From: Euglena gracilis
Lineage: Eukaryota
Assembly: GCA_039621445.1 (NCBI GenBank)
Contig: CP154954.1
Coordinates: 17,266,589-17,330,588 of the forward strand
Length of the DNA stretch: 64,000 nucleotides
Direction: 5' to 3'
Both the position numbers and the translations under genes were made by a program. Of this stretch, positions 18,300 to 41,400 are shown in pieces. The notes beneath the pieces are model-generated. The model was not told where the DNA came from, made no database searches, and saw nothing but the letters and a program-made list of their open reading frames with translations. Position 1 is the stretch's first letter; the number at the start of each line of letters is the position of its first letter.

Positions 18300-22570
<4,271 letters not shown>

Positions 22571-24070
22571 AGGGGTGTGGTGTGTGGAGCACAGAACCCT
22601 GCGTGAGGGGAACGAGATAAATGGGAGGGCTGCCCTGTGTTTCTGTGACAACACACTGGCCCTGGCCCAGCCCACCAATGCAGCAACGATGGCACCCACT
22701 CGGTGTAAAAGAAGCTTGCTCCCTTTGAGGGTGGTGGGGTAACAGCCTTATTTTGGTCAGTTGTGTGCCCGAGATCTGAATAATAGCTCGGCACTCTCTG
22801 AAACGGGCATCCATCACCATTGAACAAAAGTAGGAGTAGGAACTTGAAACAGAACAGAAAATGAGACAGAATGTGTTGCTATGAATAAGACGAATTCAAA
22901 TTGGTAAAAATCAGGGCAAGGATTTCTGCTGGTACCAAAAGAGCATCCGCTTTTACATCTCTAACAATCTGGACAAAATAATGAGAGCCAAAAATGTAAA
23001 CATCCTGAACATCCTCATTTTGAAGTAATTTGTTTTTTACCCGTATTATCATTTTTGGGGGCTGCAACGAAAAAACAAAAAAAAAGGTCACCAAAGACCA
23101 TCCTGACCATTTTTTTTTGAAAAATTTGAATTTTTCTCTTGCCGAAATGCTCATTACAAATGCTAAATTACCATAATTTCCCCCAAAAAATTTTCATGAT
23201 TTTTCCCCGTATTTGTCGTATCCAGCAATTTTTGTTGTCCAGAATTATCCACAAAAAAAGGCAATACAAAATTGCCAGGATTGAAGGGTGGCCGTGGAGC
23301 CAACCATAGGGGGGCCAAGGTTGCAGTGAAAACTTGCAGAATTTTACAGAAATTTGTGAACATCTTTTTCGAAAAGGTGGGAGCTCGGAGTCAACCTCAC
23401 TTAATTACCGTTTTTTTGGCTGATTTAAGCAATTTTTGGATGAATTGTCAGCATTGTTTGGCCTTTTTGGTAAATTTGGCCAATTTAGTTTTCATTTTTT
23501 TTTTTTTGTTTTCTATTTTGGCCATTTTTTGGCATTATGGAAAAACTTTGGTATCTTATTAACTTTTTGTCTTGTCCTTGTAGTTCTCCGTGGTGTATTC
23601 CTTTGACAATCGCTCTGTGCCTCCTCGGTTTTTGATTTCACAACCAGGCTCCTTTTTACCAACCCCAGGGGGAGGGGGCTGCTTGTGCTATCTCCCTGGT
23701 GCCTGCCGACCAAGCAGGTTTTTGAAATTACCATTTTGATTGGTTTGATTTGGTGTTTGTCATTTTGTGCCTTTTGGTTTTGTGTTTGATTTCAACCAGG
23801 CTCCTTTTTTACACCCAGGGAAGATGCTTGCTTGCCTGCCGGGGTTTCCTGAAAATTACTTTTTTTTTTTCCGGGCCCCCCAGCGCAAACACACCCCACA
23901 AAACCACCCCAAAAACCCTGCCACCGGGGGTACGAAACGGGCTTGCCCACAGCACCCCTGCTTGGAGGTAAACCCCCTGGCTGGATCGCCCCAGGCGGGG
24001 GGGGTGATCTTAAGAAAATCCTAGAAAGGAGAGTACAAAAAGGTCACTTGGCTGAGAAAGGGAATATATG

Positions 24071-24191: not shown

Positions 24192-27100
24192 TCCGCGTGT
24201 TGATGACTTTGGCCTTGGCATTTGATTTGATAATTTTCTTCTTTTAAAATACATGGCCACCATCAACACACAGAATTGTGAAAAGAAAAGGCAATAATGC
24301 CAACATTTCGTCGAAACATCCATCAAAAGCACATGTCAGAAGAGTACGCCGGGCAGCATTGCTGGTTATACCCTCTGAATGGACTGAACGAAACAGGATT
24401 GCGCCAGAAAGGGGACGGAACGGGCAGAAGGGGCGAAACAAACTTGGAAATTACTCTGATAAAATTCACAGACCAGACAGAAAATCTCCAAAAATACACA
24501 GGAAACAATTACATGGAAAAAATTTGGTGCCTGGGAGTAGTCGACCCCCCCCAGAGATTTAAATGAATGAATTTTTTTTTAGAGTGAAAATGACTTCTCG
24601 GGGGTCTTTCAAAGAAGCCTAACAGCGTATCTCCTCGCCTCACGTTCTTTAGCTCAGGTTGAGCGCACGCTGCAAAGAGCGAAACACGAACAAATGGCGA
24701 ACATAATGCCGGCCAATAATTACGCAAGCCTCCGAACGAGAATTTACCTCTTGGCCCATAATTTGTCAAAAATAACCTTAGCAGAGGATTCTGTATCACC
24801 ACGGTCAATCTTTGATCAAATCAAAAAATATTTCACTAATTTGCCCCCCCAAAAGCCCACAAAAAAATAAAAATAACCCCACCACTAATTATTGTTTGAA
24901 CGTCCGAAGTTGGAAACCAGACCCTTTTTTTGAGTCCAAATAATCAACCACGCAGGACCTGGGGACCTGCGGGGTTAATGATTTGGACTCAAAAAAAATC
25001 CTAAACAGGGCCTTCACGGGATCCACCGGGTCGGTTGATTAACAACGGACACCATTTCTTGTATATTCACGGCTGTGATTTCATCAACCTCCATCATTTT
25101 CCAAAATATCGAGTCACTCTTCTGCCTTTTGTTTTGTACTTACCTCATTGTCACTTCACCTCACGCGGGTGTGGCAGGGGCAGGACTGTACGGGAAGTCC
25201 TGGTGGAGGGGGGTTGACCCCCCACCCGAGACGTGGGCGGGGTGGGTTGACCCCCCCACCCGCCATGGTGCCCAGTCAAAAAAAAATTCCTTCGGCACCG
25301 AAAGATTAAATTCATCCTGAAAATTGCCGCCCCTTGAATACAGGAAAGCCTGGTGGGTGGTGGGCGGTGGGGGGGGGGGGTCGGACCACCGTCCCCCCCA
25401 CCAGGATCAGGGTGGGGGGGGGTGGACCCTCCCGCACACACTTCACTCATGGCGGTGGCATCAACAACCCCCCCCCAACGCCATGTGCGAACGCTTGGTG
25501 GGGGGTTCGACCCCGCATGGCAGGATGGCAAAGATAAACGCCCTTGGCGCAGAAGGCACCGACATTTTGACCAAAAAAACTGGCACTCTGAAATGCAGGA
25601 AGGGGTGGGTGGGTGGAAGGTCGCACTCCCCTGAAGAACCAGATGGTGGGGGAATAGAATTTCCAGAATTCTTGTTCAGCCTGAATTCCCAACAAGGGAT
25701 AATTGTCACCTGGAAGGTCAGACATTCAGGGACCCCGACAACGTTCTTTGTCACAAATTTGCCAGCACCGGAGATCCTGACAGTTTCCTTTTAATAATGG
25801 AAATAACCCAGGGTGGGTAGCCCAAGCCGGTCCTCAAGGCCTTTTGGAAGGGGGGGCAGGTAACCCCCCCCCCAAAACTCCAGGGGGCCTTATTTGGGGG
25901 GTCTGACTTTTGGATTGTTGCTACACGCCCCAATTGGAGAAAGCGGATCAGGGGGATCCAAACCATACCATTGCTTTGCGACCCCCCTGGGGGGGAGGGG
26001 TGGTCGCTTTCCACTCTGAAAAAACCAACCAGTCACTTTCCCCCCCCAAAAAAAAACCAGTCAGCCACTTTACCCCCCCCCCCCGGGAGGGATTGAATGT
26101 GCCTGTTTTGGTAAGCCATCGTGGTGAAGCAATGAGATTGGAGGTATGTTCTCATGTGTGGTCTCGCCCAGTTTGAAAAAAAGAGGCATAATTACATCAG
26201 AAAAATGGTCAGAAGAATCAGATTCGGACGATTTGGCACTGTCCAATGACGATGAAACCCTCTTATCATCTGACACACGAATTTCCAGCACCTTTCGGCG
26301 ACGCACAAAATTCCGAAAAATTTCCGGCGCCTGTGCCAGGCCAGCCACTTTTTTTTTTCATTTCCGGGCTTACCCCACCCCTGGGGGGGGTCTTGGCCAG
26401 AAAACCAGTAAGTCACTCTGAAAAAACCAGTCAGTCAACCCCCGGGGGTGGGGTGACACAGGTGTTAAACAATGGCATGATCCAAACCCACGGAATATGC
26501 CAAAGAAGTCACCTTGCAGACGATAGAGCAAGTTTTCGACAATAAAGCCAAAGACCGACTTTTCTGACACAAGTTTGCATTGTCTAGCACCTTGAAAATG
26601 TGTCAAAGAGCAAATATGCCACAGCAAAGTCCTTCAATTTTGTCACAAAGATTCAGGCAGCAAACAAATCAGGGAAAGACAACAATTGCGCGAAAAAAAA
26701 AAGTTTCTACAAAATTGAAATGCTGGCAAGCAGGCTTCAGGAGGTTCAGAAGGCTAACATTAATCTGAGGGGTGTGCTTTGAAAGTGGTGCGGGCTTGAA
26801 AAGCTAATATACTGCCAAAAGCAATCGAACATGGGGGATGGGTGTTTTGAGGGTTTTGAAGCCAGCTCATCGTCCAACAAACCACCTGTGGTGCCAGCGG
26901 CTATCTTTGACAGCTACGTGGTAAAAAAAAAACAGAAGTCCATCACACAATCATTCACTTGATCCTGCAGTGTTCCCAGGGCGACGGGGGCAACAGACTT
27001 AGACGGCCGGGAATGCACTTTTCTTGTGTAGTCACAAAAATATGACAGTTTTAGTGAAAATGCGCATCCGCGCATTTTGGACGCGGAATGCGCAGGTGCG

Positions 27101-28105
27101 CATTCCGGCCCTGTCGCGTGCGCTCTGAAAACACTATCCAAATCGCGTAATGGGAAGGCTCTAATATTTTGACGCGTTTTGAATGTTTGCTTCTTTCTGC
27201 ACAGTGTGCTTTGTATCACATTTCGACTGCAAAGAAGATTGTGAGGTGACTGCCCCTGACGTCAGCTACACTCCCACACCCCGCCGAGGCAGCAGTATTG
27301 CGGGATTGTCAAGATCCGAATTGGGGTGGTCTGGACGGAAAGGGGTGGTGGTGAGTGGGGTCGGGACCACCATGCAGGGGTGGGTCACATGTTTCCTATT
27401 GGAAGGTTCTAATTGGACCGGTGAGTGAGAGAGCGGGAGGGGATGCGACCTGGGTGGGTGGGTGGTTGTTTCACCGTGTAGTATACGAGGGGTCTGAATG
27501 TGCAGATGCGCATTCAGACCAATGAGTTGAAGAATGCGCTCCTGCGCATTCAGACTGTCCAGATGACTTCACTTTCCCCCCCCCCCTGCTTTCTGGGCTG
27601 ATACACGGGTACCGGTGTGTCAGTAAGCGTGGTGGTGGTTGCTCCCTTCTGAGACGTGAAGGACTGGTTTCCAGTCAGCCTTGTGATTTGTCGGTCCAGT
27701 GTTGGTACGGGGTGTGTCACACGCTTACCTGGCGATTGTGTTCCTTTGGTCCTTTGCAGTTGAGTGTGGTTTTGAACTGTGAGTCAGTCACTCCCCGCAG
27801 CCCGATGAACGGAGCGAGCACGCACGATTCTGATCCACTGTTGTCACACCGTCAACACCTGGCTTGACGTGTACTGATTGACTGTTAACGTTGTTTTCAG
27901 CTGGACGTCACACCCACAGACAGGCTGCGGTTATCAGAACACAAGCGAGACGACCCCAGACCGGCTACCAGTTCGTTACACAATGTACGACAGAATGCGC
28001 ATGTGCGCATTCTGTCGTACATTGTGTATTCTGTACCTTTTTCAGTTATATGTTACCACCAGACTGAACGATGAATGCGCACATGCGCATTGTTGAGACG
28101 TTTTT

Positions 28106-31100
28106 GTGGTAGTGCATTTCGATCGGTTTGTACCTCGTTTTACGAATGTTTGTTTGTCCTCTGACTGCTGTCTCGGCGGTTCCCGTCACTCGGCAGTCCC
28201 TACACCCCACCTCAGCATCCCCATGCCCCGACAACCCCAGTCCCTGTACCGTGCCCGGCACACGCACACCCCCGCCGTCCTCGCCTGTGCCACGGCGGGC
28301 AAGATCATCGGGCGGCTGGTGCGCGACACCTTCGTTGCCACGTACGCCGACTTCGTCACGGCCGTGGTGGACCCGCCCCACCCCCTGTACGAGTTGGTGG
28401 TCCTGGTGGCCCACACCCGGGTCCCGTTCCGCCGCTCCCCGGACAGCGACCACCTCCTGGCGGAGCTGACACGCCGCCCCCGCCGCCAGCGCACGGAGAT
28501 GCTGCTGCGGGACGCCTGGGCCTCGTACCGGGCCCACCGCCAGCACGCCTGCCCCCGCGCCCCACAGCCCCGCCTCGCCGCCGAAGACGTCCCCCTGCCC
28601 GCCACCCGCGCCCTGGGCCGCTTCCTCCGCCCCAGCGGGGTCCACCCCACCGCCCTGCTGCACTCCGCCGCCGACCGCGCCCGGCTGGCCCTGGCGCGGC
28701 AGGCCGAGCTGTGGCACGACCTGGCCGGGAACCCCGCGGTGCTGTGGTTCGACAACTACTACAAACGGCGGTACCGCAACACGCCGCCGCGCCAGATGGA
28801 TGCCCACCTGAACGTGGTGGTGGTGGCGGTGCTGCCGCTGGTGGACCCCGTGCCCCCGTTCCCCGGCTACTACTCCCTGGAGCAGCTGTGGCAGCGGCAC
28901 CTGCTGGTTGGTACCGAGCTGGCGGAGCACGGCGGCGGACGACTGCGGGAGCGCATCCGGGCGGTGGCCGACTGGGACCTGCCGGCGACGGACTTCCGCG
29001 TTCCCCTGGACGTGAGCCGGCCCCGGGTGGAGGCCCTGCCGTGGCGTCCGTTCCTCATGGGCGACCACGCCGTGTCGGCCCAGGTCGGCCTGCTGGAGGT
29101 GCTGCGCTACCTGCGGGGCTCGGTCGCCGACCACCTCGCCACCCGGTGCCGGTCCTCGTGGACGAGAACATCTGGTACCGGGTGGCGAAGCTGCTGTACG
29201 GCAGGGAGCTGCAGCGGTGGGACGTGTCGGCCGCCCTGACCCCCCTCCCCATGCTGTACGCGGTGTGGCACCCCTACAAACAGGTGGTGCACACCGTGTA
29301 CCGGCGGTTTTTGCCCCTTTTCCTCTACGTGCAGAGCGGCACCCTGGCCCGCAGCGGTACGGGCAGCTTCCACCGGCCCAACCTGCAGACCCTGGAGCGG
29401 TGGCTGGGGGCCCTCCTGCTGGTGCCGCGGGCCACCCGATTGCGCATCTGCGCATTCCGGGACCGTCTGGGGCGTCGTGACCGTGGTGGAACGCGAGGCG
29501 GCGCAGCGGGCCACCACCGTGGCGGAGCGACAGGCCCAGCTGGAGGCGGCCGAGGCCCACGTTCGGCAGCAGGGGTGCGGGGTGTGTGCCGATCAGGCCC
29601 TGGCGGGAGGAGCGTGCGATCGAGGCGGAGGAGGCGGAGGAGGCACAGCGGGCCGAGTCTGCACTGCGGGATGCCCAGCAGGTCGTGCGGATCCTGCGGG
29701 CGGACAGCACCATCCTGGCGGCGCTGGCGGATCTCCTGGGGGAGTGGGCTCCGGCATGTCTGGTCCTGGGGGAGATGGTGCGCACCTGCCACTGGGAGTC
29801 GGAAAGTGGGCCCTGCGGCGTGAGGGGCACCCAGTGAGCCTGCCTGAGCCCCCCCTGCCCCCAGGCCGGCCCGCACGGGGTGCAGCCCGCCGTGCAGTGG
29901 CACCCCGCGCTGTGAGCGTGCGGCGGAGGGGGCCCGGCTGAGGACGCGGAGCGCCGGTGGGGGCGCGCGGCCCCCCCCTTCCCCCGGGACGGGGGTGCGG
30001 AGGCAGCGTTGCCGTGGCGGACATGTGGTGCGGAATGCCGTGGGCCCCGCCCCTCCCTGCGGCGCCTCCCCGGCTGCCCCCGCCGGAGCAACGACCCACC
30101 TCCACCGGCGCCGGAGCGCCCCCCGCCAGCGACGTGCCCACCCCCGTGCAGGACGCCGCTGCGGGCCGGTCCGCGGCCCGCCCGAGGACCCGAGGGAGCT
30201 GGAGGCTGGGCCCTGCGCCGCGGGAGGTCCCAGGCGGGGAGAAGGCGACCGGGCGAGGGCGCGGCGGTGCCGGCCGCCCCGCCCGGTGCCTGTTGTGCGC
30301 GGCGGGGCATATGGGCGGATCTGGAGGCGACCGTGCGCAGTGCGCACTGTGGATGCGCGTGCGCACATGCGCAATCAGCGCTGTTTGCGCACATGCGTTC
30401 AGTGATTTACCAGATGTTGAATTGTGTTGGTTTTGACGTGCATGGCGTGCTGGGGGGGGGAGATGGTGCGCACTGCCACTGGGAGCTGCGACAGTCCGGC
30501 ACCGGCGGACACGCCCTCGAGGCACGCCAGTTTGGCCCTGCTGCTGCGTCTGGAGGCCCCCGGTGAGCGCCGCACGGAGTACATCCGGACCGTGGGGGTG
30601 GCCATGCTGTGCTGGACGCCGTGGCACGCCGCCCTGCCCGCGGCCTGCTTCAGCGAGGAGCTGTGCGAGGCGGCGCTGTCCCGGCTGGGGCGGGCGAAGG
30701 AGAGGCAGCCGGAGGCGGTGAGCACGGATCAGGTGGGGGACCGGTACGTGCTGCTGGAGACGGGTCGGTCAGGGTGCTGCGGGGTGGCAACGTGGGGCAG
30801 CGGTGGGTGGACACGGTGCGCGGACACGTGGAGGCCCTTCTGGAACGGTGTGCGGTGCGGAGCAGCGACTGCCCGTGGTGCCCGGACAGATGGTGGCGGT
30901 TGAGTCCGTGTCCGACGTGGTCCGCTACGTGGCCCGGCTGACGGAGCGGGAGTACTCCGTGGGTGAGCCCTGGCCCGCGGACTGGAGCCACCCCGCCAGC
31001 CTGCTGTCCGTGGACCTCACCCCGGAGGACGCGACGGCCACGATGCGGTACGCGTTGCTCGCCCTGGTCGGGGACGACCTGCCCAACGAGGACGTGCAAC

Positions 31101-31333
31101 GGGAGCTGGATGGCCTGTGCGCCCGTCGGAGCGAGGAGGAGGTCGTCCAGTATCTCCGGGCGTGGGACGGTGTGGCCGGGCGCGTCCGACCGGAGGCAAA
31201 GCCCAAGGCCCAGCCACAGGGCAAGCCGAAGGCGAAGCCCCAGCCAGTCGCCACCGTCCCGGTGCAACCAGCTGTTGCGAACTGGCGGGTCATATGGAGG
31301 AATTGTCTGTCAATCATCATGAGTGCGAAATAA
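28106..31333 (+). pseudogene. Frameshifted putative DDE-type transposase (Academ/DUF6589-like motif order) with a degenerate C-terminal zinc knuckle
   Basis: Stitched across frames: VLWFDNYYK...LNVVVVAV, PVLVDENIWYR, LYAVWHPYKQ, a helical insert, YIRT...CFSEELCEAALSRL, then a C...C-x3-GH remnant near 31265-31305. Strong GC3 bias; it is the first gene inside the left TIR. Frameshifts near 29140, 29470, 29580, 30530 and 30790. Confidence 0.6.
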
Positions 31334-33254
31334 CATTGTGATTGCGCATGTGCGCAAACAGTGCTGAATGCGCATGTGCGCAATCAGCACTGTTTGCGCA
31401 CATGCGCATTCAGGACTGATTTTACCAGATGTTCTGAATTGTGTTGGTTTTGACGACTCACCCGTAATACGAAGTGGACAGTGCAATTGCTGTGTCTTGG
31501 GTTATTCCACTGAGCTGTTCGATGTATACAGCGTGTTAAGAACGCTTTTGCTAACCCGTTCTCTTTCTTGTCTTGACTGAGAGGTCATGACCACAGAATG
31601 CGCATGTGCGCAAACAAACCACATATGACCGTCTTCACCATAATCTCTTGGAATGCGCAGATGCGCATTCGCAGTAACTTCGATCGTTGGGAATACACAG
31701 ACTGACTCAAACACCCGGTCAGTGTGTGGCAATGTTCTCTTTTCGCGAATTGACTTGGTGATTGCCCGGCCAGCACCCATCCGCCGCCGTGCTTCGCACG
31801 GCGCAGCCCCTGTGCGTCAGTCCGTTTTCGAGCAACCCGCTCCCTTGCGCCGCAGGCAGCGGGCCTGCCCATCCCGGCGGCTCCGCTGGTGGTGTGCGAC
31901 GGGTCCCCCACCCCCGTGCCGTCGGCCCAGAGGCCCGGGCCGGTCTCAGCACCCCACCTGGCCGGCCGCATCCCCGATCCCGTGCCGCCCGCCACGGGCC
32001 CCAACGTGTACCTCCCAGCCAACCCCGACGAGGACGTCGCCTGAGCTGGGACCCCGCACGGGCGGGGCACCCCCACCACCCGGGACACGGGGGCGCTTGA
32101 TTCGTCCGACGTTCTGGAACGATTGGGAGGACTGCGGGGGGTGCGCGCAAGTGTGTAGAACACCGGGGCGGAGCCCCCGCGCCTTGGTCAGCCTCCTTTC
32201 GGACAGCTGGGCACGAATTTTTCCTCCAAAAAATATCCGCGTACATTACGCGATTCTGCGCGACTAGCATTGCACACGTCAGGTGTGTAATTTTGTCCAG
32301 TGATTTTCGCCAAAACAGAGCCTCAGGACTCAAAATTGTGCATCCGAAATATTTCGACTTCCCCTGACCTGTCCAGAAAAACAGCACCGCTGGAGGCGCC
32401 GCCGTTGTCGAAATCGCCTGTTCTGGCCCTTTCAGAGGCATTCGTTAAAAAAAAAATTCGTTTTGGATGGTTTTTCCTCGGAGGGGATGGTACCAACTCT
32501 TGCACTGGGCTTGGGCGGGTGCGGGTGCGCGGCACCGCCCCACTGCTGGTTGCCGCGCACGTGGGGCCCCGGGCGCCGCAGGCCCCCGGGGGCGGCGGCC
32601 CCCCCGTGTGGGCAGAACGCGGACCGCCCAGGTCGCGGGGAGCGCTTGGAGACGACCGGGCCGTGCACCCGTGGGGCCCTGCCGGGGGGACGCGCACAGT
32701 GGAGATGGGCGTGTGTCGACGGCCCCGGGAGCCATACCCGTGTGCTGTGGTGGCGGCCCCTTCGTCCCGGGGGGGGAACCGTGGCCCCGCGGAACGGGAC
32801 TCGCCCGCGGACGCGACCCCCCGCGGGTCCAGGCCCGCCCGGCGGACCCCACCTGCGGGCGCGGGGCAACCCGCCCCCCGCGGCCCGCGCCCCCGCCCCC
32901 CCCCGTGCCCCGGGGGCCGGGCCCTGAGGGGGGGCGTGGCGGAGCGGCACCCGCCTGCCCACCGCGGGAGGGCATCCCTGACCGGTGTTGACCGGGCCAA
33001 CGCAACCCCCTGCGTGGACCCCACCACCCGGGGCACGGGGCGATTCGGTCCCGTTTGGGCGCTGGGGGGGGAGGGGTTGCGGCGTGGGCGGAGCCCGTTG
33101 ACCGCCTCCGTGCCCAGGCGGGATGGGTCTCCACAACGCGCTCGCAATTGCCACCCGTCTCGATGTGTGGCCCTTCACTTTTTCCCGCCGATTGCACCCC
33201 GTGCGCCCCGGGGCGGCGTAGGCGCCGTGTTCAGAGTTAAATTCGCTTGGAGCG

Positions 33255-36200
33255 GTGCAGGGGGGGGGGTGGTACCAATTCAGCTTCTATAGGGGTTGCC
33301 GCTCCGTACACACTGGGTCATGTACCATTTCTCGACCACAGGGCACCGGCACCCCCATGTCCCGCCCCCCATCGCCAGCGCCCTCAGTCCCCGACGTGCC
33401 GGAGCCCCTCACGGTACCCCCCACCCAAGGTCCCTTGCAGGAGGAGGAGGAGGAAGCAGAGGGGGAGAGGCGGAGGAAGAAGAAGAAGCGAGTGGTGGAG
33501 GCCATCGCGACATGGGCGGGCGGGAGGCCTGAGGACTGGCTGTTGCCGGGTGAGCAGCGCATCGAGCTCACCAAGGTGCGCTTCGACCTGAGCTGCCGAG
33601 AGGGGCAGGTGCGGTCGTTGGTGGCGGAGGACGTGGACCGCGTCTACGAGGCCATGCGCACCAACCCCCCCACCACGGTGCAGAGAGTCGTGGTCTGGGC
33701 GGCAGACACGATAGGTATGCGCATGTGCGCATTGTTTGTTGGTTGGTGATTTGCTTTGCATGATGAATTTATGGATGGATATGCATTGATTGAATTGGCG
33801 AATGCGCACCCGCGCAAACATGCAGTGGCTTTGGCATTCATACCTGGCTTGCAGCCTCTTTCCATCCCCCTGCCTTCCTCGTTCGTCTCGTCACAGATCG
33901 GGAGTACGTGGTGGTGGGCGGCCAGCACATGACCGCGGCGCTGAAGAGGATGGCGGAGGACTTCCTGAAGGAGCGGCGAGGTGCCGGAGCAGTACCGGTG
34001 GGTGCTGGCGAGGGTGCTGAAGCACGGCAGCTGGCCGGTGGCGACAACCAGGCGCAGCAGATGCAGGTCCACGGCCTCCCCCTCAGCAGCTTCGCGGCGC
34101 TGCTGCTGGGCGACGACGTGCGGGCGGAGGCCAACCCGAAGGTGAGGCCTGGCGGTGGCGCTGCGGAAGGCGGGGGGGGTTCGGTCGGAGCGGCGAGGGG
34201 GGCCTCACCGCGGGGCGCTGTCCAGGCCATGATGACCGAGATCACCACGATGCCAAGCGCCCCATCCCTCCTCCATTAGGTCGGTGGACCTTCAGCCGCT
34301 CGCCCATGACGGGGTAGCGGGGCCCTCGCAGGTTGCCGCCAACAGTCCAAGGTGGACTGACGCTTCGGTGGGGGCACGTCGGCCTCAGCGGCCGGAGACC
34401 GTGCCCTGGTTGATGATCGCGGCGTGGCGGGGGGCTTGGCTGACGCTGCTCGTGCCGGAGGGGCTGTCCGCTGCCTCTTCACTGGAGCCAGGTCCTCCAC
34501 CGCTCGCGCCCGCCGGTGATCCGCCTCCTCCGCCGGCGCCGAGACGCGTAAAGATGACAGGTAATCCTTCCACCGTTGCTGGAACAGCTCGTACCAGGCA
34601 GCTGGCTCCCCATGGGCGGGTGTTACGATCTGCACCGGCCAGCGCTGGTTGTGGCTGTCCCGCAGGCCCGGTCCCAGGGCACCGACCACATCTCGGGGGA
34701 TCATGTAATCCCGCAGCTCGTCGTCCAGGCCAACCTGGCGACGCAGGCGACGGGTGAAGCCCAAGGCCAGCGCGGACTCCGAGCTGCCCGCGGTGGACGG
34801 GAAGGGCATGCCCTTGTCCACCTCCCACAGCAGAAGGAGCGCTTTGCTCGGCAACCCCTGCTCCACCGCTGCCGCCCGCAGGTGGGGGTGATACCGCAGC
34901 CAAGCAGCAAGGCCTGCATCCACCTCCTCGATGGTTGCCGCGGAACGGGGAACCGGACGGGCAGCTAATTCGCGCTCAGCCCGCTGGCGCCACCGGTCCG
35001 CATCCCGATGCATGCTGGGGGTGCGGTTATACAGCCGTGGCGCTGCGGAAGGCGGGGTAAGACAGGACCCAGAAGACGGTGTGGCTCGTGCTGTATGGGG
35101 GTAATGGATGATGATGCAATGTGGGTGGTCAGGTTCGGGAGATGGCATGCAGCAGTGTGTGGCATAACATGATTGCGCACATGCGCATTCTTATAAGAGA
35201 AGAATGCGCATGTTCGCATTTTGGTCCGTTCAATGGAATGTTCATATACTTGTCTCCCGCCTCCCACACTCAGGACACGGCAACCAAGGCGTACAGCCCC
35301 CTCCAGCGCTGGGTGGAGCAGCTGGGGCAGCAGGCCATCGAGACGCTGCGGAAGCTGGAGGTGGCGAAGAAGGGGCTGACGGTGTCGGCGCTGCGGTCCC
35401 TGAGGATGCTGATGACACCGGAGGCGCGGGCGGCGGTGGTGCCGGCGCTGCTGGGGGAGAAGCCCAAGCTGCAGGACTTCGAGAAGGCGGTGAGCGACGC
35501 CTGCCTGGAGATGTGGATCAACTTCCACTGGACGGAGGCCAACCGCTTCATCCACCCGGACGTTGGTGTGTTTGTTGTGTCGCCCACCCACGTTTGCATT
35601 TCGTGCCATGGAACGTGATGGATGCAGCATGCTATGGGCATTGATGGCTTGGTGTGGGGTGCACTGCATAGTATGATTTGATTGCGAACCTGCGCATTCT
35701 CCCAACCACTCCCGTACACTGCCCTCGCAGTGGAGGACTGGGCCGCCAGACGGAGGTTCAAGGATGCCGTCGCACTCCGCCACCTGGTCGTGCGGCTCGG
35801 GCGGTGGGAGTGGCGGGAGGACGCGCCGTGCCCGCCCTTCACGGCGCTGGCCACCGCCGAGGTCTGGACGTCGGTGAAGTTCGAGGCGCTGCGGGAGAGC
35901 CTGGCCGCCCCGCGCCCGAAACCCAAGGTGGTGGTGACGGAGGACCCGGCGCACCTGGCCTGCGTGGACTACGCGCGGGAGATCCAGGGGGAGCAGAAGA
36001 CCCTGGCGAGGGTGTTTTGCTACTCGGCGTCGTCGGAGGCGGGGGTGCCGATGCAGGCGGAGCAGGCTCGGGTCCGGATGGTGGTTGTGCAGGCTGAGCG
36101 AGGGGTGGCGATCGCGCCGCAGGTGTACGCCGTGGCGGACGACGTCCCCGTGGTGGTGTTTGGGATGCCGGCGCAGGCGCTGGCCACGGTGGAGCACATC

Positions 36201-38448
36201 CACCGGCGGGTGGCCACCAAGCACCGTACCCGCCCCCCGGGCAATTGTCGCGTGACAAATCGGGCAGCACGGAGGGGGGTGACAATTTCCCGGGGTGACA
36301 ATTTGGCCGGCACAGAGGGGGGTGACAATTGCCCGGGGGCGTCAATTGCCCGGGGGCGTCAATTGCCCACCCATGTAGGCCACATTAAATCCAAATGACC
36401 AAAAACACCATCTGAAACACCAGTGAACACGCAAAAATGAACCTATGTTTGTGATATTGTGCAGAGCATTTGGTATGTGACATTTCTCAGCACGTTCTAG
36501 CGAAATAGAGGACCAATCGAGTCGTGTCGGCGAAAAGAAAGTTCACAAACATCTTCTGTGGGGGGGGGTGACAAATTGGGCAGCACGGACGGGGGTGACA
36601 ATTTCCCGGGTTGCAAATTGGCCGGCACAGCCAGGGGTGACAATTGCCCGGGGGCGTCAATTGCCCGGGGGCGTCAATTGCCCGGGGGCGTCAATTGCCC
36701 GGGGGGGGGGGCGGGTATCGATGTAGACTGCTGGGTGAGGACCGAGGTGGTGGAGTTCGGGGCGCAGCGCCACCGGCCGGTGAAGTTCTCCCTCCACGTC
36801 CTCCTCCACGACACGGAGCTGGACAGGCTCAAGGTCTGTGTCTGCAACCCCTCCCTGATGCTCTGAGTCAATGGCAATGCATAAACGCTGTGTCTCTGGA
36901 TGCATATTACGCCAGAAGAGTGCTTGGGTGCGGTCCTGGCAATGAATGCGCACTTGCGCAATCCTCCCTGCATGGGATGATTGCGCATGTGCGCATTCTT
37001 ATTTGCGTTTATAAGATGTTGCATTCCATGTCTCTGTTGGCATTCCATATGCAGTACTGAATGCGCACCTGCGCAATGCCTACCCCCTTTGCCATCCCTG
37101 CTCAGGTCCCCCCCGTCATCCTCTGGGACCGGGAGTCCAACGGCTCCTCCGACGCGTTGCACTGGGCCGTGGTGGACTACCTGTGGCGGCGGGCTGTCCG
37201 GCGACCGGTGGAGGCGGACAGCTTCCTCCTCCTCCAGCTCCCCTCGGCGGTGCGGGTGGGCCACATCCTCAACTGGACGCCCAACCCCCCGCACATGGTG
37301 GCGGTGCTGACGGGGAAGGAGAGGGTGCAGCCGGTGGAGTACACCGAGCACATCCGCCACGCCGTGCAGGAGGCCTGCCCGGTGGACAACACCGGGCTGT
37401 GGAAGCAGCTGCAGGACGCGGTGGAGAAGTCCGAGCCGCTGTGGACGGTGGTGGAGTCCGAGGTGCTGAAGCAGCTGCTGGAGGTGAAGGCGACGGAGGC
37501 CCAGGCCCGGAAGGAGGCCGTCCAGCGACGGGCGGAGAAGAAGAAGGAGCGGGCGGCCAAGCGGGCCGCACAGCGGGGGAAGGCCAAGGCCAAGCCCAAG
37601 GCCCGGCCCAAGCCCAGCACCTCCCAGGGGGTGCCCCAGTCCCTGCTGCGCACGGCCCGGATCTACGAGCGGCGGATCCGGAGGAACATCGCCCGGGAGG
37701 AGGGGCGGCCACCGGTGTTCACGTCGGATGAGGAGGAGGAGGATGAAGAGGGTGAGGAAGAGGAGGGTGATGATGAGGAGGGCCAGGGGGCCAGTGGAGG
37801 GTCGTCGCCGCTGTCGTCGCACCCCAGCTACGAGGAGGGGGAGGAGCCCGAGGGGGAGGCGGAGCCCGAGGTCCCGGAAGGCCAAGAGGAGGCCTCCGCA
37901 CAGGTGGTGGAGGGCGAGGGTGGCGAGGAGGGGGAGGGGGAGGGGAGCAGAGGGCCGCCCAGGCTGTGGTGGAGCCAGAGACCGTGGTGGAGTCCGAGGA
38001 GGAGGAAGGGGCCAGGGGGAGGGAAGAACGGCGAAGGCAGCCCGTGGTCCCGGTGCCCCCAGTGGAGGAGGTGGAGGCCCCAGAGCCCACTCCCCCCCCG
38101 CCCCGCCCAGCGCCCAAGCAGCCCAGCGGCCCCCCACCCCTCGGCATGGTCCGCCGCCCGGCGGGCAAGACCCTCCCCCCGCCCCGGAGGCCCTCACCCC
38201 CAAGGAAGAAGAAGAGGGGTACCCAGGAGGAGGAGCCGGAGGCGACGCCACCCCCCAAGCGGAGGACCTCCCTGCTGTCCAGCCCCAGCCCCAGTCCCAG
38301 CCGCCCCGAAGACCCGCCGGGCGGCAACGTCCCAAGCAGCAGCGCCCGCGCCTCCCACGCCTCCAGCCAGCCTCCCTCCCCCAGCCCCCAGCCCCCAGCC
38401 GGTGCCCGATCCCCAGCCCAGTCCCCAGCCCGCGGCCCCCAGCAGTAG
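33255..38448 (+). CDS. Five-exon cargo gene: N-terminal ParB/Srx-fold-like domain, central alpha/beta region, Lys-rich, acidic and Pro-rich tail; interrupted by a MITE
   Basis: GT-AG introns 33715-33896, 34142-35273, 35566-35730 and 36834-37105 all join in frame. The spliced N-terminus FDLSCREGQVRSLVAEDVDRVYEAMRTNPPTTVQRVVVW..D-REYVVVGGQHMTAALK..ARQLAGGDN follows the ParB pattern (R...L..S....P+.V...Y.++.G.HR..A...N). The start and the 3' end are uncertain, with a frameshift near 37940. Confidence 0.7.
34176..35036 (-). mobile_element. 861-bp insertion with a 21-bp target duplication, probably a 5'-truncated retroelement, in intron 2 of the ParB-like gene
   Basis: gtggcgctgcggaaggcgggg occurs at 34155-34175 and 35037-35057. 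The insert is open on the minus strand from its edge to TAA at 34278-34276 (…HGRAAEGPPT*), followed by a ~100-nt 3' tail. Confidence 0.7.
36229..36715. mobile_element. MITE (CAATTGCCCGGGG repeats) inserted at TA in an exon of the ParB-like gene
   Basis: TA|cccgccccccgggcaattg ... caattgccc(G)ncggg|TA. Removing it and one TA restores aag cac cgt atc gat gta gac tgc tgg (KHRIDVDCW). Confidence 0.9.
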
Positions 38449-41400
38449 CAGTCCCCCGCAGCGCGGACCTCCCTGCAGGAGCGGACGACCAAGTTCACCC
38501 TGCTGCCCTTCCCGCCGCCGCGGAAGGAGAAGTGAGTCCACAGGGGGGTGCACTCCTCTTCAGACTCCTCAGCCCAGTGCAAACATTGCGCATGCGCGCA
38601 TTCTTCTGCTCACAGTGTGCTGATTGCGCACATGCGCATTGTTTTCCCATGCACACCCCTCTCTTCCCCAGAGGCAATCCCCTCCCGTTCTGCCAACCCC
38701 TCTCGCGTGCACAGTCGACATAGCCGCCGGTGGGTACACACAGTGCACACAGCGTCCGGGCCAAAAGAATGCGCACATGCGAATTCATCCCCTCTCCTGA
38801 ATCGTGCATGCCTTTTGGATTTGGTTTACCACGCGGTGCATGCACACCGACCAGCAGCACACACCCCAAGCATACACCTAGGCGGTCCACTGGACCAGGG
38901 TGGCACACCCGAGGCCACTCGGGGGTGCACCCCTGGGAGGTGGGCCAGGTGCGAGCACGCCCCTCCCTCTCTCTCTCCCCCATGGGAGAGACACAAAGGA
39001 CCAAGGGGAGTGAACCTACCAGCGCGTCCAGCGCTGCGCCGGGGCCGGCTGCGGCGGGGCGTCGGGCGGCGCAGGCGTGCGGCCAGAGGGCCGCAGTGTG
39101 TGCGAGGCACGGCGTGCCTGAACCTGTCACACCCATCCGTCAACCCTATACACCCGGCGAAGCATACCCACGCCGCAGCAACCATGTGTCGGACCGCCCA
39201 CCTCTCAACCCCTGCACACCTCCCCCTCTATACCCCTGGCACTCTCCCCCTCCCTCCCCCCTATATCGGACCAAGGACCAAAGGACAGTGAGGGAAGGTA
39301 AGGGATGGGACCGGCAAGGGAGGGAAGGGTGTCTCCAGCCAAAGGCCCATGCTTTGCCTTCAAATCAAAATAAAGTTGGGGTGGGGGGAGGGGGGTGAAT
39401 GCGCACCTGCGCAATACCGAGGCCACCGGGGAATGGGGGGAGCCGGCGGGTACTATGCCTTCACCGGACGAGGGTGCCGCCCCGAAAAACAGTGTTTCGT
39501 GTCGCATCGGCTTCGCTTGACGAGGTGTTTCCCCCGGCCGGCGGAGAACAAAAACAGGTCTGCTCAGAGTCAAAAAAGTCGGATTCCTCAAAAAAATCCT
39601 CGCGTACCGGAAGTCGTGGTACACCTTTGCTCTCGATCAGCTCGGCTTGTCGGGTCGGCCGCCCCGTCGGGTGGTGGTGACTCACTTGATAAAAAAAGAA
39701 TGCGCGGGTGCGCAAACTTGGGCAAAATATGAAAAGTGCATTCCCGGCCGTCTAAGACAGATCCCTCACCCGAAGGAGAGACCTATCAAAAACACTCCGA
39801 GAATGGCCATAGATTGGGACACAAGAAAAAAGGCCAAGGCTCTGACTCGTAGCCGATACACACAGTGAAGCTCTGCCACTGGTGCATGTAATTTCAAAAA
39901 AATGGATTCTGCTTCAAATCATAATTTCATCAACATTACCATCGTCCCTTAAACATTGTTTTTGAATTATTTTGCATGAAAAGAAATAACACGACAGAAG
40001 GGAGGACAAAGATTTGAGAGAATCTTCGTCACCAACCGCCCCCCCCCCCGGCCATATTTTCAAATTTCCATGTCTTCCACAAAGATCCACACCTGCGACT
40101 GGTGTCACTGGTGTGTGACGAGTTTAACAAACTTATAAATTAAACTAAAAAAACAAACCACCGGGGCCATTCCAGGCAGGTTCCCGTCTTCCAATTGCCC
40201 CCATCGTTCACAAACCCTGCTTCCTTTCTGCCCACCCTTAAAGCATCGGACAATTTTCGCCTGAGCTCTCTGACCGCGCATTTGCCCCCCCCATTCGTCT
40301 CCAACTCTCTAATTGTGTTTCTGCAAACACCCTAAACTCATCAATAAATGTCGGCCAAGCCTCAGTGCTGAAGACGGACAAATCAGCCAATAGAATAAGC
40401 CTCCCGAGTGGGAAAACTGCATATTTTTTTTCGGCGGATAACTGCCTACTTAGTCTGTTGCTTCCCACCCAAACACCTGCTAACTGCTCAATTATTTTGA
40501 AATCTTGGGATGGTTAGGCAATTTGCCGCCCAAAGCAAGCATTGAAAGTTGGTGGAAAAGTTTTGTGAAAAGGAAATTTGATTTCCCAGTTTTTTTTAGT
40601 CCTGGGCTATTTTTGGAGATGAACAGTTTTTTCATTGTAAGAGGTCTGGTGAAGGCAAGATAACACCAGAGCACCTGCCCACATCGTTGGGGAGTTCCCC
40701 CGCTACCATGGGCTACAGGAGGTAGTCCCCATTGTGTAAAGACCAGCAGCACCAACGTCTGGCCAACGTCTGGCTTCAGCAAAGGGGAGTATAAGAATTC
40801 AGATCCGAACGCAAACACAAAAAAAATGGAATGGACGCTAAAAAGGCAAATAGCTTGGCCACAAAAAGGGACACCCATCCAAACGTTCACCCGCTGGGTG
40901 GGGCAAAAGATGCAAAACCGCCAGAAATGCACTCCCCAACACACATACCCCGCGTCATTGAGAATGGCAGCGAGGCCGCTGCCTGTCCAGTATGCAACGG
41001 CATCGGCCTTGTCGCAGTCCACGCTCCGCAGGCGGTCTTTAAAGGTCCACTTCCACCAGAAGGGCTTCCCCTCCTCCAACGCGTTCCAGGGCGGCTCGGC
41101 CATAGCACAGAATCCTGTGTGAGGGGAATGGGAAGTGAATGGGAGGGGGATGGGGGATCGATATGACCACATATCGGAGGCCTTCAGGAAAAGTGTGGGG
41201 TATCGCAAAAAAATGCCAATCACAGAAATTGCGGAAAATTACGGAAATACAGCTATCAACCCCGCCGGGGGGAGGGGGCTGCCAAGTGCCTCAGAGGGAA
41301 TCCTGGTCCACTTCGCCTCATGTACGCCCGGCCCACCAGCACAGGCACCAATGGTCTAGCTTCGTTGCACACAGGAGGACGGCTCCCTTTTTTGATGATA

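Follow-up and report, generated by a model that had tools for sequence, protein, structure and literature searches.

The 64,000-nucleotide stretch of the Euglena gracilis genome analyzed here (the window; contig CP154954.1 of assembly GCA_039621445.1, forward-strand positions 17,266,589 to 17,330,588) contains a two-gene DNA transposon of 12,759 bp with terminal inverted repeats (TIRs), which spans window positions 26998-39756. Comparison of its two ends shows that the left TIR (26998-27023, plus strand; CTTAGACGGCCGGGAATGCACTTTTC) and the reverse-complemented right TIR (39731-39756, minus strand) agree at 26 of 26 positions, and that ACAGA, a 5-bp target site duplication (TSD), flanks the element on both sides (26993-26997 and 39757-39761). 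A delimitation with a 3-bp TSD, GAC, and 25-bp TIRs was rejected, since the one with ACAGA and 26-bp TIRs accounts for one extra matched base at each end. The exons of the element have a G+C content of about 70%, with 93% G+C at third codon positions (GC3), and its introns and other non-coding parts lie at about 47-61%, in part down to the level of the flanks (48%). The strong three-base periodicity of the coding segments allowed them to be traced by codon periodicity without a gene finder; across the element, this periodicity leaves room for just two genes and one antisense open reading frame (ORF).

Gene 1 (28223-31333, plus strand) can be followed through blocks homologous to its relatives at 28223-29137, 29137-29457, 29673-29819, 30474-30819 and 30908-31249, with an intron at about 29820-30473. 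Frame switches lie at about 29137, 29457-29673, 30530 and 30820-30908, and as the homology thus jumps frames at four places, the window copy is broken, unless these are assembly errors. A search with the 307-residue first block (28223-29143) against 1.84 billion representatives recovered at least 223 relatives at E<=0.001, the best of which show 45-50% identity and have 403-842 residues; the ten best relatives with clusters looked up come from ENA, JGI and Logan contigs of 1.6-6.6 kb. No Pfam family, and hence no model of a named superfamily such as hAT, Mutator, EnSpm/Plavaka, KDZ, PIF or piggyBac, was detected in any of the 29 relatives scanned or in the gene 1 pieces from the window, and the 66 pattern matches obtained for such relatives in IMG/VR yielded none that was confirmed. 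An alignment of 39 relatives displays the invariant residues D165, N166, R247, P249, D251, R254, D302, W337 and H338, along with a nearly invariant E379. In a confident AlphaFold model of one relative (predicted local distance difference test score, pLDDT, 86.4; predicted template modeling score, pTM, 0.80), about 155 N-terminal residues form a helical region, which is followed by D165 on a strand (161-172), D302 directly after a second strand (299-301), and then a long coiled-coil hairpin (388-498). The window copy retains WFDNYY, PLDVSR, LVDEN and WHPYK. From these conserved residues and the model, we predict that gene 1 codes for a DDE-type transposase of an unnamed and as yet unplaced family. 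Foldseek comparisons gave weak matches throughout, with a best E of 0.057, Hermes at E 0.072 (probability 0.63) and ISCth4 at 0.13, and the VIA-align lists for the model are dominated by the coiled-coil hairpin. The family could possibly represent an undescribed superfamily of DNA transposons with a 5-bp target duplication.

Gene 2, also on the plus strand, is reconstructed from five predicted exons. Exon A (33357-33714) supplies the start codon, a proline-rich and then acidic segment and a basic run, RRRKKKKR, resembling a nuclear localization signal (NLS), after which comes IELTKVRFDLSCREGQVRSLVAEDVDRVYEAMRTNPPTTVQRVVVWAADTI, belonging to the first half of a proposed ParB/Srx-like domain. 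Intron 1 (33715-33896; 182 nt, GT-AG) leads into exon B (33897-34141), which reads REYVVVGGQHMTAALKRMAEDFLKER... and, by codon periodicity, goes out of frame and back within 70 nt, with switches near 33976 and 34043. Beyond a long intron (34142-35272) lies exon C (35273-35564), which is helical in a low-confidence model; folded alone, it gave four helices with a pLDDT of 62 and a best Foldseek match at E 1.8. We make no claim for a helix-turn-helix in this exon because that level of confidence renders the Foldseek result meaningless. Exon D (35730-36832) is split by an insert resembling a miniature inverted-repeat transposable element (MITE), and exon E (37106-38450) has a globular start, an acidic/basic low-complexity tail and, judging from its periodicity, a probable frame switch near 37900.

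The element is distinguished by a single palindromic word. The exact form, TGCGCANNTGCGCA, occurs 17 times in the window, always within 27089-39413, as against none in 100 dinucleotide-preserving shuffles (mean 0, largest 0). When up to two mismatches are allowed, there are 33 matches in the window, 27 of them within the element (17 exact, nine with one mismatch and one with two). The remaining six (5833, 13008, 47955, 48659, 49017 and 52722; five with two mismatches and one with one) are at about chance level, given a chance expectation for the whole window of 2.31 +/- 1.40 (largest 6), and no exact full site is found in the 51 kb of flanks. Likewise, the hexamer TGCGCA is found 50 times inside the element versus five times outside it, and the exact 9-bp half-site GAWTGCGCA (W being A or T) 30 times inside versus none in the flanks. 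The palindrome is therefore specific to the element within this window and far above chance.

Alignment of the 27 sites in both orientations defines a conserved unit of 20 bp, GAWTGCGCA-NN-TGCGCAWTC, in which all the information is concentrated; none is seen past +/-10 from the center of the site. Within it, the 2-bp spacer is nearly free (TG in eight, CA in seven, CC in five and others in seven of the 27), and WW stands on both sides in 25 of the 27 sites. Whether the W beside a core is A or T varies independently between the two halves, and only 11 of the 27 sites have a complementary -1/+14 pair (a proportion of 0.5 being expected without pairing), which argues against selection for a hairpin. 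Long arms are rare: perfect 25-bp arms occur at site 27996 only, and the array at 31343-31408 forms a long imperfect palindrome. Since the half-sites are kept as sequence and not through pairing, they look like the sites of a dimeric DNA-binding protein and not like stems, and we predict that the palindrome behaves as a protein recognition site.

The sites are confined almost entirely to non-coding DNA. All but one of the 27 lie in 3,756 bp of AT-richer non-coding backbone, comprising introns, untranslated regions and subterminal DNA, at a density of one per 144 bp: the left subterminal region and the leader together hold six, the gene 1 intron two, the intergenic region five, the introns of gene 2 eight, and the DNA from gene 2 to the right end another five. 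The leftmost site begins 61 bp in from the left end, and 40 bp separate the rightmost site from the right end. In order along the element, pairs of sites occur in the left subterminal region (27059-27104, cores at 27061 and 27089), at 27497-27550 (27499 and 27535), in the 5' leader of gene 1 (27994-28091; 27996 and 28076) and, 26 bp apart, in the gene 1 intron (30358-30401; 30360 and 30386). These are followed by a three-site array with a 26-bp period just after gene 1 (31341-31410; 31343, 31369 and 31395) and an intergenic pair (31597-31669; 31599 and 31654). The four gene 2 introns hold two, two, one and three sites, respectively: intron 1 has a pair (33716-33818; 33718 and 33803), the first of which begins three bases past the splice donor; the long intron has a pair near its 3' end (35172-35220; 35174 and 35205); the intron at 35565-35729 has one (35681-35698; 35683); and the intron at 36833-37105 has three (36945-37077; 36947, 36982 and 37062). 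Three further sites come after gene 2 (38585-38785; 38587, 38625 and 38770), and the last two occupy the right subterminal region (39398-39716; 39400 and 39701).

An earlier reading of this stretch from its letters alone (hereafter the sequence-only reading) had placed an element at 26998-39756, with some 27 palindrome copies spread from 61 bp inside the left end to 40 bp inside the right and none in the other 51 kb. The identical TIRs with ACAGA on both sides, the 27 matches, the two distances and the lack of exact sites in the flanks bear all of this out. Its statement that nested insertions are free of copies survives in part: three segments of the element do lack TGCGCA (31701-33356, 34142-35099 and the region of the MITE-like insert, 36227-36712), but only the insert itself (36229-36710) is shown to be an insertion, as it alone has clear inverted ends.

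The single coding site (29439-29456) lies inside the transposase reading frame, where motif and translation coincide in the peptide RLRICAF. It is spelled with codons that are rare in these genes of 93% GC3, namely CGA (8 of 117 Arg codons), TTG (7 of 113 Leu) and GCA (7 of 134 Ala), each accounting for 5-7% of its amino acid; multiplying codon frequencies gives a probability of about 5e-5 for this spelling of the peptide. The DNA word, and not only the peptide, seems to have been kept. The closest relative of the transposase (P0002) has RVRICAL where the window copy encodes RLRICAF, and the DNA word may be conserved in the coding sequence of this transposase lineage.

We propose that the palindromes would be recognized by a dimeric protein that binds DNA sequence-specifically and is encoded by the element itself. 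They would have been retained at every place where coding permits, which would let the element be recognized as self along its full length and not at the ends alone. The most likely reader would be the product of gene 2, a putative accessory protein of the nucleus whose N-terminal domain is possibly ParB/DGQHR-like, and its most likely use would be an element-wide marking, through either anti-silencing or the modification of the chromatin or DNA of the element's own copies. We advance this self-recognition by an element-encoded protein, most likely that of gene 2, tentatively, as a possibility that falls somewhat short of an even chance.

The nature of the gene 2 N-terminus bears directly on this proposal. 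The sequence-only reading had described a spliced peptide, GQVR...NPP...YVVVGGQHMTAALK...DN, with a ParB/Srx-like N-terminus; the peptide is present, but it is split by the 182-nt intron and the two frame switches of exon B (REYVVVGGQHMTAALK...). As regards the domain, a GGQH stretch does fall in the register of the DGQHR signature, but no match for the pieces of the gene emerged from Pfam, NCBIfam or PHROGs. The spliced reading of gene 2, with X at the frame breaks, was compared with our own profiles of 38 chromosomal ParB proteins taken beside parS sites and of 49 DGQHR-domain proteins. With the full ParB and full DGQHR profiles it did not stand clearly above its shuffles; it ranked third of 502 with the full-length DGQHR profile. 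The stretch REYVVVGGQHMTAALKRMAED aligns in register to the DGQHR signature iiDGQHRlaaikeal with 4.7-5.2 bits. Against the N-terminal part of the DGQHR profile, hmmsearch gave it 4.7 bits (E 0.0018 for one sequence) and the first rank of 2001 versus shuffles; by hhalign, it obtained a P of 0.016 and a probability of 2.9%. The best local alignment to the N-domain profile of chromosomal ParB likewise places the GGQH stretch in register with GERR, at 0.4 bits. To our judgement, the hydrophobic pattern around this stretch looks like that of ParB/Srx domains, and we consider it slightly to be favored that the N-terminus of gene 2 adopts a ParB/Srx fold. The only hint of a methyltransferase is an NPPH tetrapeptide in exon E, which we take to resemble methyltransferase motif IV. 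In the ESM Atlas, exon A attained scores of 0.76-0.78 only and no families, and a PDB sequence search with exons A and C returned chance rows only.

Several observations weigh against the proposal. The frame switches of gene 2, the MITE in its exon D and the broken transposase together mean that this copy cannot itself act. The gene 2 pieces matched no family in Pfam (E<=1), NCBIfam or PHROGs (both E<=10), and word-based searches with exon A, ORF-B and exon E recovered no relatives. The likeness to ParB is weak and confined to a 24-residue stretch, VVVGGQHMTAALK, in which the Arg of DGQHR/GERR is replaced by Met (GGQHM). The N-terminal DGQHR profile scores gene 2 at 4.0 bits versus 3.8 for the next of 1027 window ORFs, a lead of 0.2 bits, and the N-domain profile of chromosomal ParB ranks it 149 of 2001 against shuffles. 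In each TIR, the 9-mer GAATGCACT stands two mismatches from the half-site and would favor the transposase as the reader, weakly so in view of the frequency of such words in the flanks (see below). Finally, a block of about 80 bp occurs in duplicate, at 30360-30438 in the gene 1 intron and at 31369-31455 just after gene 1, each copy with two palindromes and an identical 21-mer, TGAATTGTGTTGGTTTTGACG; this duplication and the 26-bp arrays imply that the number of sites overstates the number of independent events.

The caveat of the sequence-only reading that the transposase or a host factor might be the binder stands. The better of these two alternatives, which we nevertheless regard as unlikely, is that the transposase would bind as a dimer to the GAWTGCGCA half-sites, the subterminal ones being used for assembly of the ends and the internal ones for autoregulation or for transcription of cognate copies driven by the transposase. 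The outermost sites, 61 bp and 40 bp from the ends, are in the usual subterminal position, and the modeled N-terminal helical region of about 155 residues together with the coiled-coil hairpin could allow dimerization. The RVRICAL of P0002 against the RLRICAF of the window copy would fit a word that travels with this lineage, and a 2026 preprint describes a Mutator transposase that activates cognate copies in a sequence-specific manner (10.64898/2026.08.24.746577). However, most sites lie kilobases from either end, in introns, where they would be useless for end assembly, and the half-site likeness within each TIR is weak because the flanks have 9-mers with up to two mismatches to the half-site at a rate of 4.06 per kb.

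A host transcription factor or chromatin protein, whose sites would have accumulated as enhancers, promoters or insulators, is a poorer candidate still. A GC-rich palindrome of two hexamers is typical of dimeric eukaryotic factors, and the sites do cluster before and after both genes; yet the 51 kb of flanks have neither exact sites nor exact half-sites (no host gene was recognized there either), a site every 144 bp through introns is far above the usual regulatory density, and the rare-codon site inside the ORF is hard to square with promoter function.

A bolder version of the gene 2 hypothesis would have its product act as a ParB-type nucleotide-switch clamp, which would load onto the 27 parS-like palindromes and spread along the whole of a transposon from an unclassified DDE superfamily with 5-bp target duplications. 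We deem this quite improbable; if true, it would mean a bacterial-style coating of DNA in a eukaryotic mobile element, which could shield it from silencing or hold together an excised copy or the two ends. In the bacterial ParABS systems, ParB acts with parS sites that are repeated palindromes of about 16-20 bp. The element is reminiscent of these in its repeated palindromes and in the possible ParB/Srx-type protein encoded alongside them on the same DNA. It differs in being a transposon integrated in the genome, for which nothing points to an episomal state, and no ATPase family, and thus no ParA-type ATPase, was found among the 10 element ORF pieces scanned against Pfam. A plasmid-style ParABS partition system is not supported, there being neither a ParA-like gene among those pieces nor a match to the chromosomal ParB profiles.

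Still further down the scale, and in our view very doubtful, is the idea that the palindromes act through structure, as DNA cruciforms or pre-mRNA hairpins in small-RNA production, recombination or replication. Every site could form a stem of 6-9 bp, and the 25-bp arms at 27996 and the long imperfect palindrome of the 31343-31408 array would be compatible with it; but most sites lack complementary arms past 9 bp, the -1/+14 pair is complementary in just the 11 sites noted above, and any palindrome would do for such a role, yet one word is common to all 27. We would give the least credence to the sites being functionless leftovers of short-block internal duplication or of a tiny palindromic insertion element, as the tandem 26-bp arrays and the duplicated block of about 80 bp show that duplication contributes but cannot explain most sites, which have only the 20-bp word in common amid unrelated flanks, are without target duplications of their own, and retain a word with two CpGs although the flanks of the element are CpG-depleted (observed/expected 0.59).

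Public contigs were also scanned for two copies of the palindrome 10-40 bp apart. At least 120 metagenome loci contain such a pair. Most of those listed hold a very common repeat, TGCGCAATTGCGCA-N24-TGCGCAATTGCGCA around GGGGAATCTCGAGATTC (for example, locus L003, 1418-1469), with a gap of 24 in 65 of 126 among the matches listed; this repeat is apparently bacterial and unrelated to the eukaryotic element, having only the hexamer pair in common with it. The remaining metagenome loci are 8-mer microsatellites. A tblastn search with 60 proteins and the gene 2 reading found no relative of either gene among the metagenome loci listed, and three viral loci with a palindrome pair were rejected as unrelated. 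A limited literature search on TGCGCA palindromes in transposons did not surface any such element.

The segment of the element at 31701-33356 is GC-rich (69%) with neither codon periodicity nor TGCGCA, and might be a spacer or an old insert. Within the long gene 2 intron, an open frame of 304 codons runs on the opposite strand (34276-35190, minus strand), its periodicity fitting minus-strand coding; it contains basic, NLS-like runs and has no Pfam match and no useful match in the Atlas. It could be a third gene of the element or part of an old insertion. The MITE-like insert in exon D (36229-36710, about 480 bp) has 23-nt inverted ends that are 91% complementary, no TGCGCA and, in its interior, a GGGGGCGTCAATTGCCC unit repeated in tandem (17 bp and 42-43 bp). 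The ratio of observed to expected CpG is about 0.59 in the flanks and 0.71-0.82 in the element, a contrast that would be compatible with CpG methylation by the host and an element that is younger or protected. The flanks themselves (1-26990 and 39770-64000) are rich in repeats, including GA, CA and other microsatellites. Two minus-strand open frames on either side of the element (22281-22895 and 40492-41238) have a peptide block in common, EEGKPF..KW.FKD.L.SVDC..AD.VAYW.GS, and are probably copies of another host repeat family. A Pfam scan of 13 flank or antisense ORFs, these two frames included, gave no informative match, and no Rfam family or tRNA was found in the window.

Proteins linked to ParB have been reported on other large transposons of eukaryotes. 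In the red alga Bostrychia, giant Plavaka (EnSpm/CACTA) transposons are described as carrying an accessory protein, PAG3, that combines a ParB-like N-domain with a 2-oxoglutarate (2OG)-oxygenase; the PAG3 gene is adjoined by tandem inverted-repeat arrays, and the authors propose that the transposon itself is the target that PAG3 binds and modifies (Petroll et al. 2025, bioRxiv 10.1101/2025.02.11.637652). As far as that description goes, the likeness lies in a eukaryotic TIR transposon with inverted repeats near an accessory gene for which a ParB-like N-domain is, in our case, proposed. Arrays beside the gene are also found here, as five sites (31343-31667) lie upstream of gene 2, with more in each intron and after it. 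Compared by published description, however, the Plavaka repeats are tandem arrays near the gene, whereas the palindromes of the Euglena element are scattered across its non-coding DNA as a whole, the introns of both genes included. Moreover, the ParB-like domain of PAG3 is recognizable as such and that of gene 2 marginal, and the Plavaka elements are given as 17-19 kb in size versus 12.8 kb for this one, the transposase of which is without a Pfam model. As for the oxygenase, no Pfam family was found at E<=1 on the exon C, D and E pieces, apart from two sub-threshold rows at chance level.

A second such protein is encoded by the Ectocarpus transposon Sola1-1_Ec32, whose ParB-like/DNA-methyltransferase accessory gene is proposed to target the carrier element itself for binding and modification (Dinatale et al. 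2025, PMC12477816); the same paper cites Iyer, Abhiman and Aravind 2011 for ParB-linked proteins on green-algal transposons. The parallel again is that a large DNA transposon encodes an accessory protein that is ParB-like or, in our case, proposed to be so. The Ectocarpus protein is described with a methyltransferase domain, whereas none was detected in the Pfam scan of the pieces of the Euglena element, and a repeated palindrome is not mentioned in the passages of that paper on which we draw, as against the 27 sites here. With both proposals in print, the idea of self-binding by a ParB-like protein is already published for other elements. What differs in this case is the sharply defined palindrome throughout the non-coding DNA, including introns, the lack of a recognizable enzymatic domain, and the different, unnamed transposase family.

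The best match to the distribution of the sites is offered by VANC of the Arabidopsis VANDAL (Mutator-like) elements, the binding targets of which are short motifs in the non-coding DNA of its own family, and which removes silencing marks, with loss of DNA methylation (Sasaki et al. 2023, PMC10398659, citing Fu 2013 and Hosaka 2017). There too, by that account, copies of a family-specific motif recur in non-coding parts of the element and are read by an accessory protein that it encodes. The VANC motifs are described as short tandem repeats, as opposed to the 20-bp palindromes found here, and VANC is not called ParB-like in the relevant passages of that paper. In the En/Spm (CACTA) system, TnpA binds 12-bp subterminal motifs, arranged as direct and inverted pairs, and helps join the ends. 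The Euglena element would resemble it as a two-protein transposon in which the second protein (the predicted role of gene 2) binds a repeated short motif. It differs in that its sites span the whole element, whereas the TnpA motifs lie within a few hundred subterminal bp, and in its 5-bp TSD and ends other than CACTA, as opposed to the 3-bp TSD and CACTA ends of En/Spm. By analogy, the mode of the element reads as closer to VANC/VANDAL self-recognition than to plasmid partition.

Transposon self-recognition and anti-silencing are known in molecular detail for very few systems, chiefly VANC/VANDAL, and the algal papers of 2025, in the parts of their text on which we draw, propose binding by accessory proteins without a picture at the level of sites. 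The 12.8-kb Euglena element offers a compact test case, with 27 copies of a 20-bp site, two candidate readers encoded by the element and a site kept inside an ORF. It thereby makes the self-binding proposed for the algal transposons directly testable by a binding experiment.

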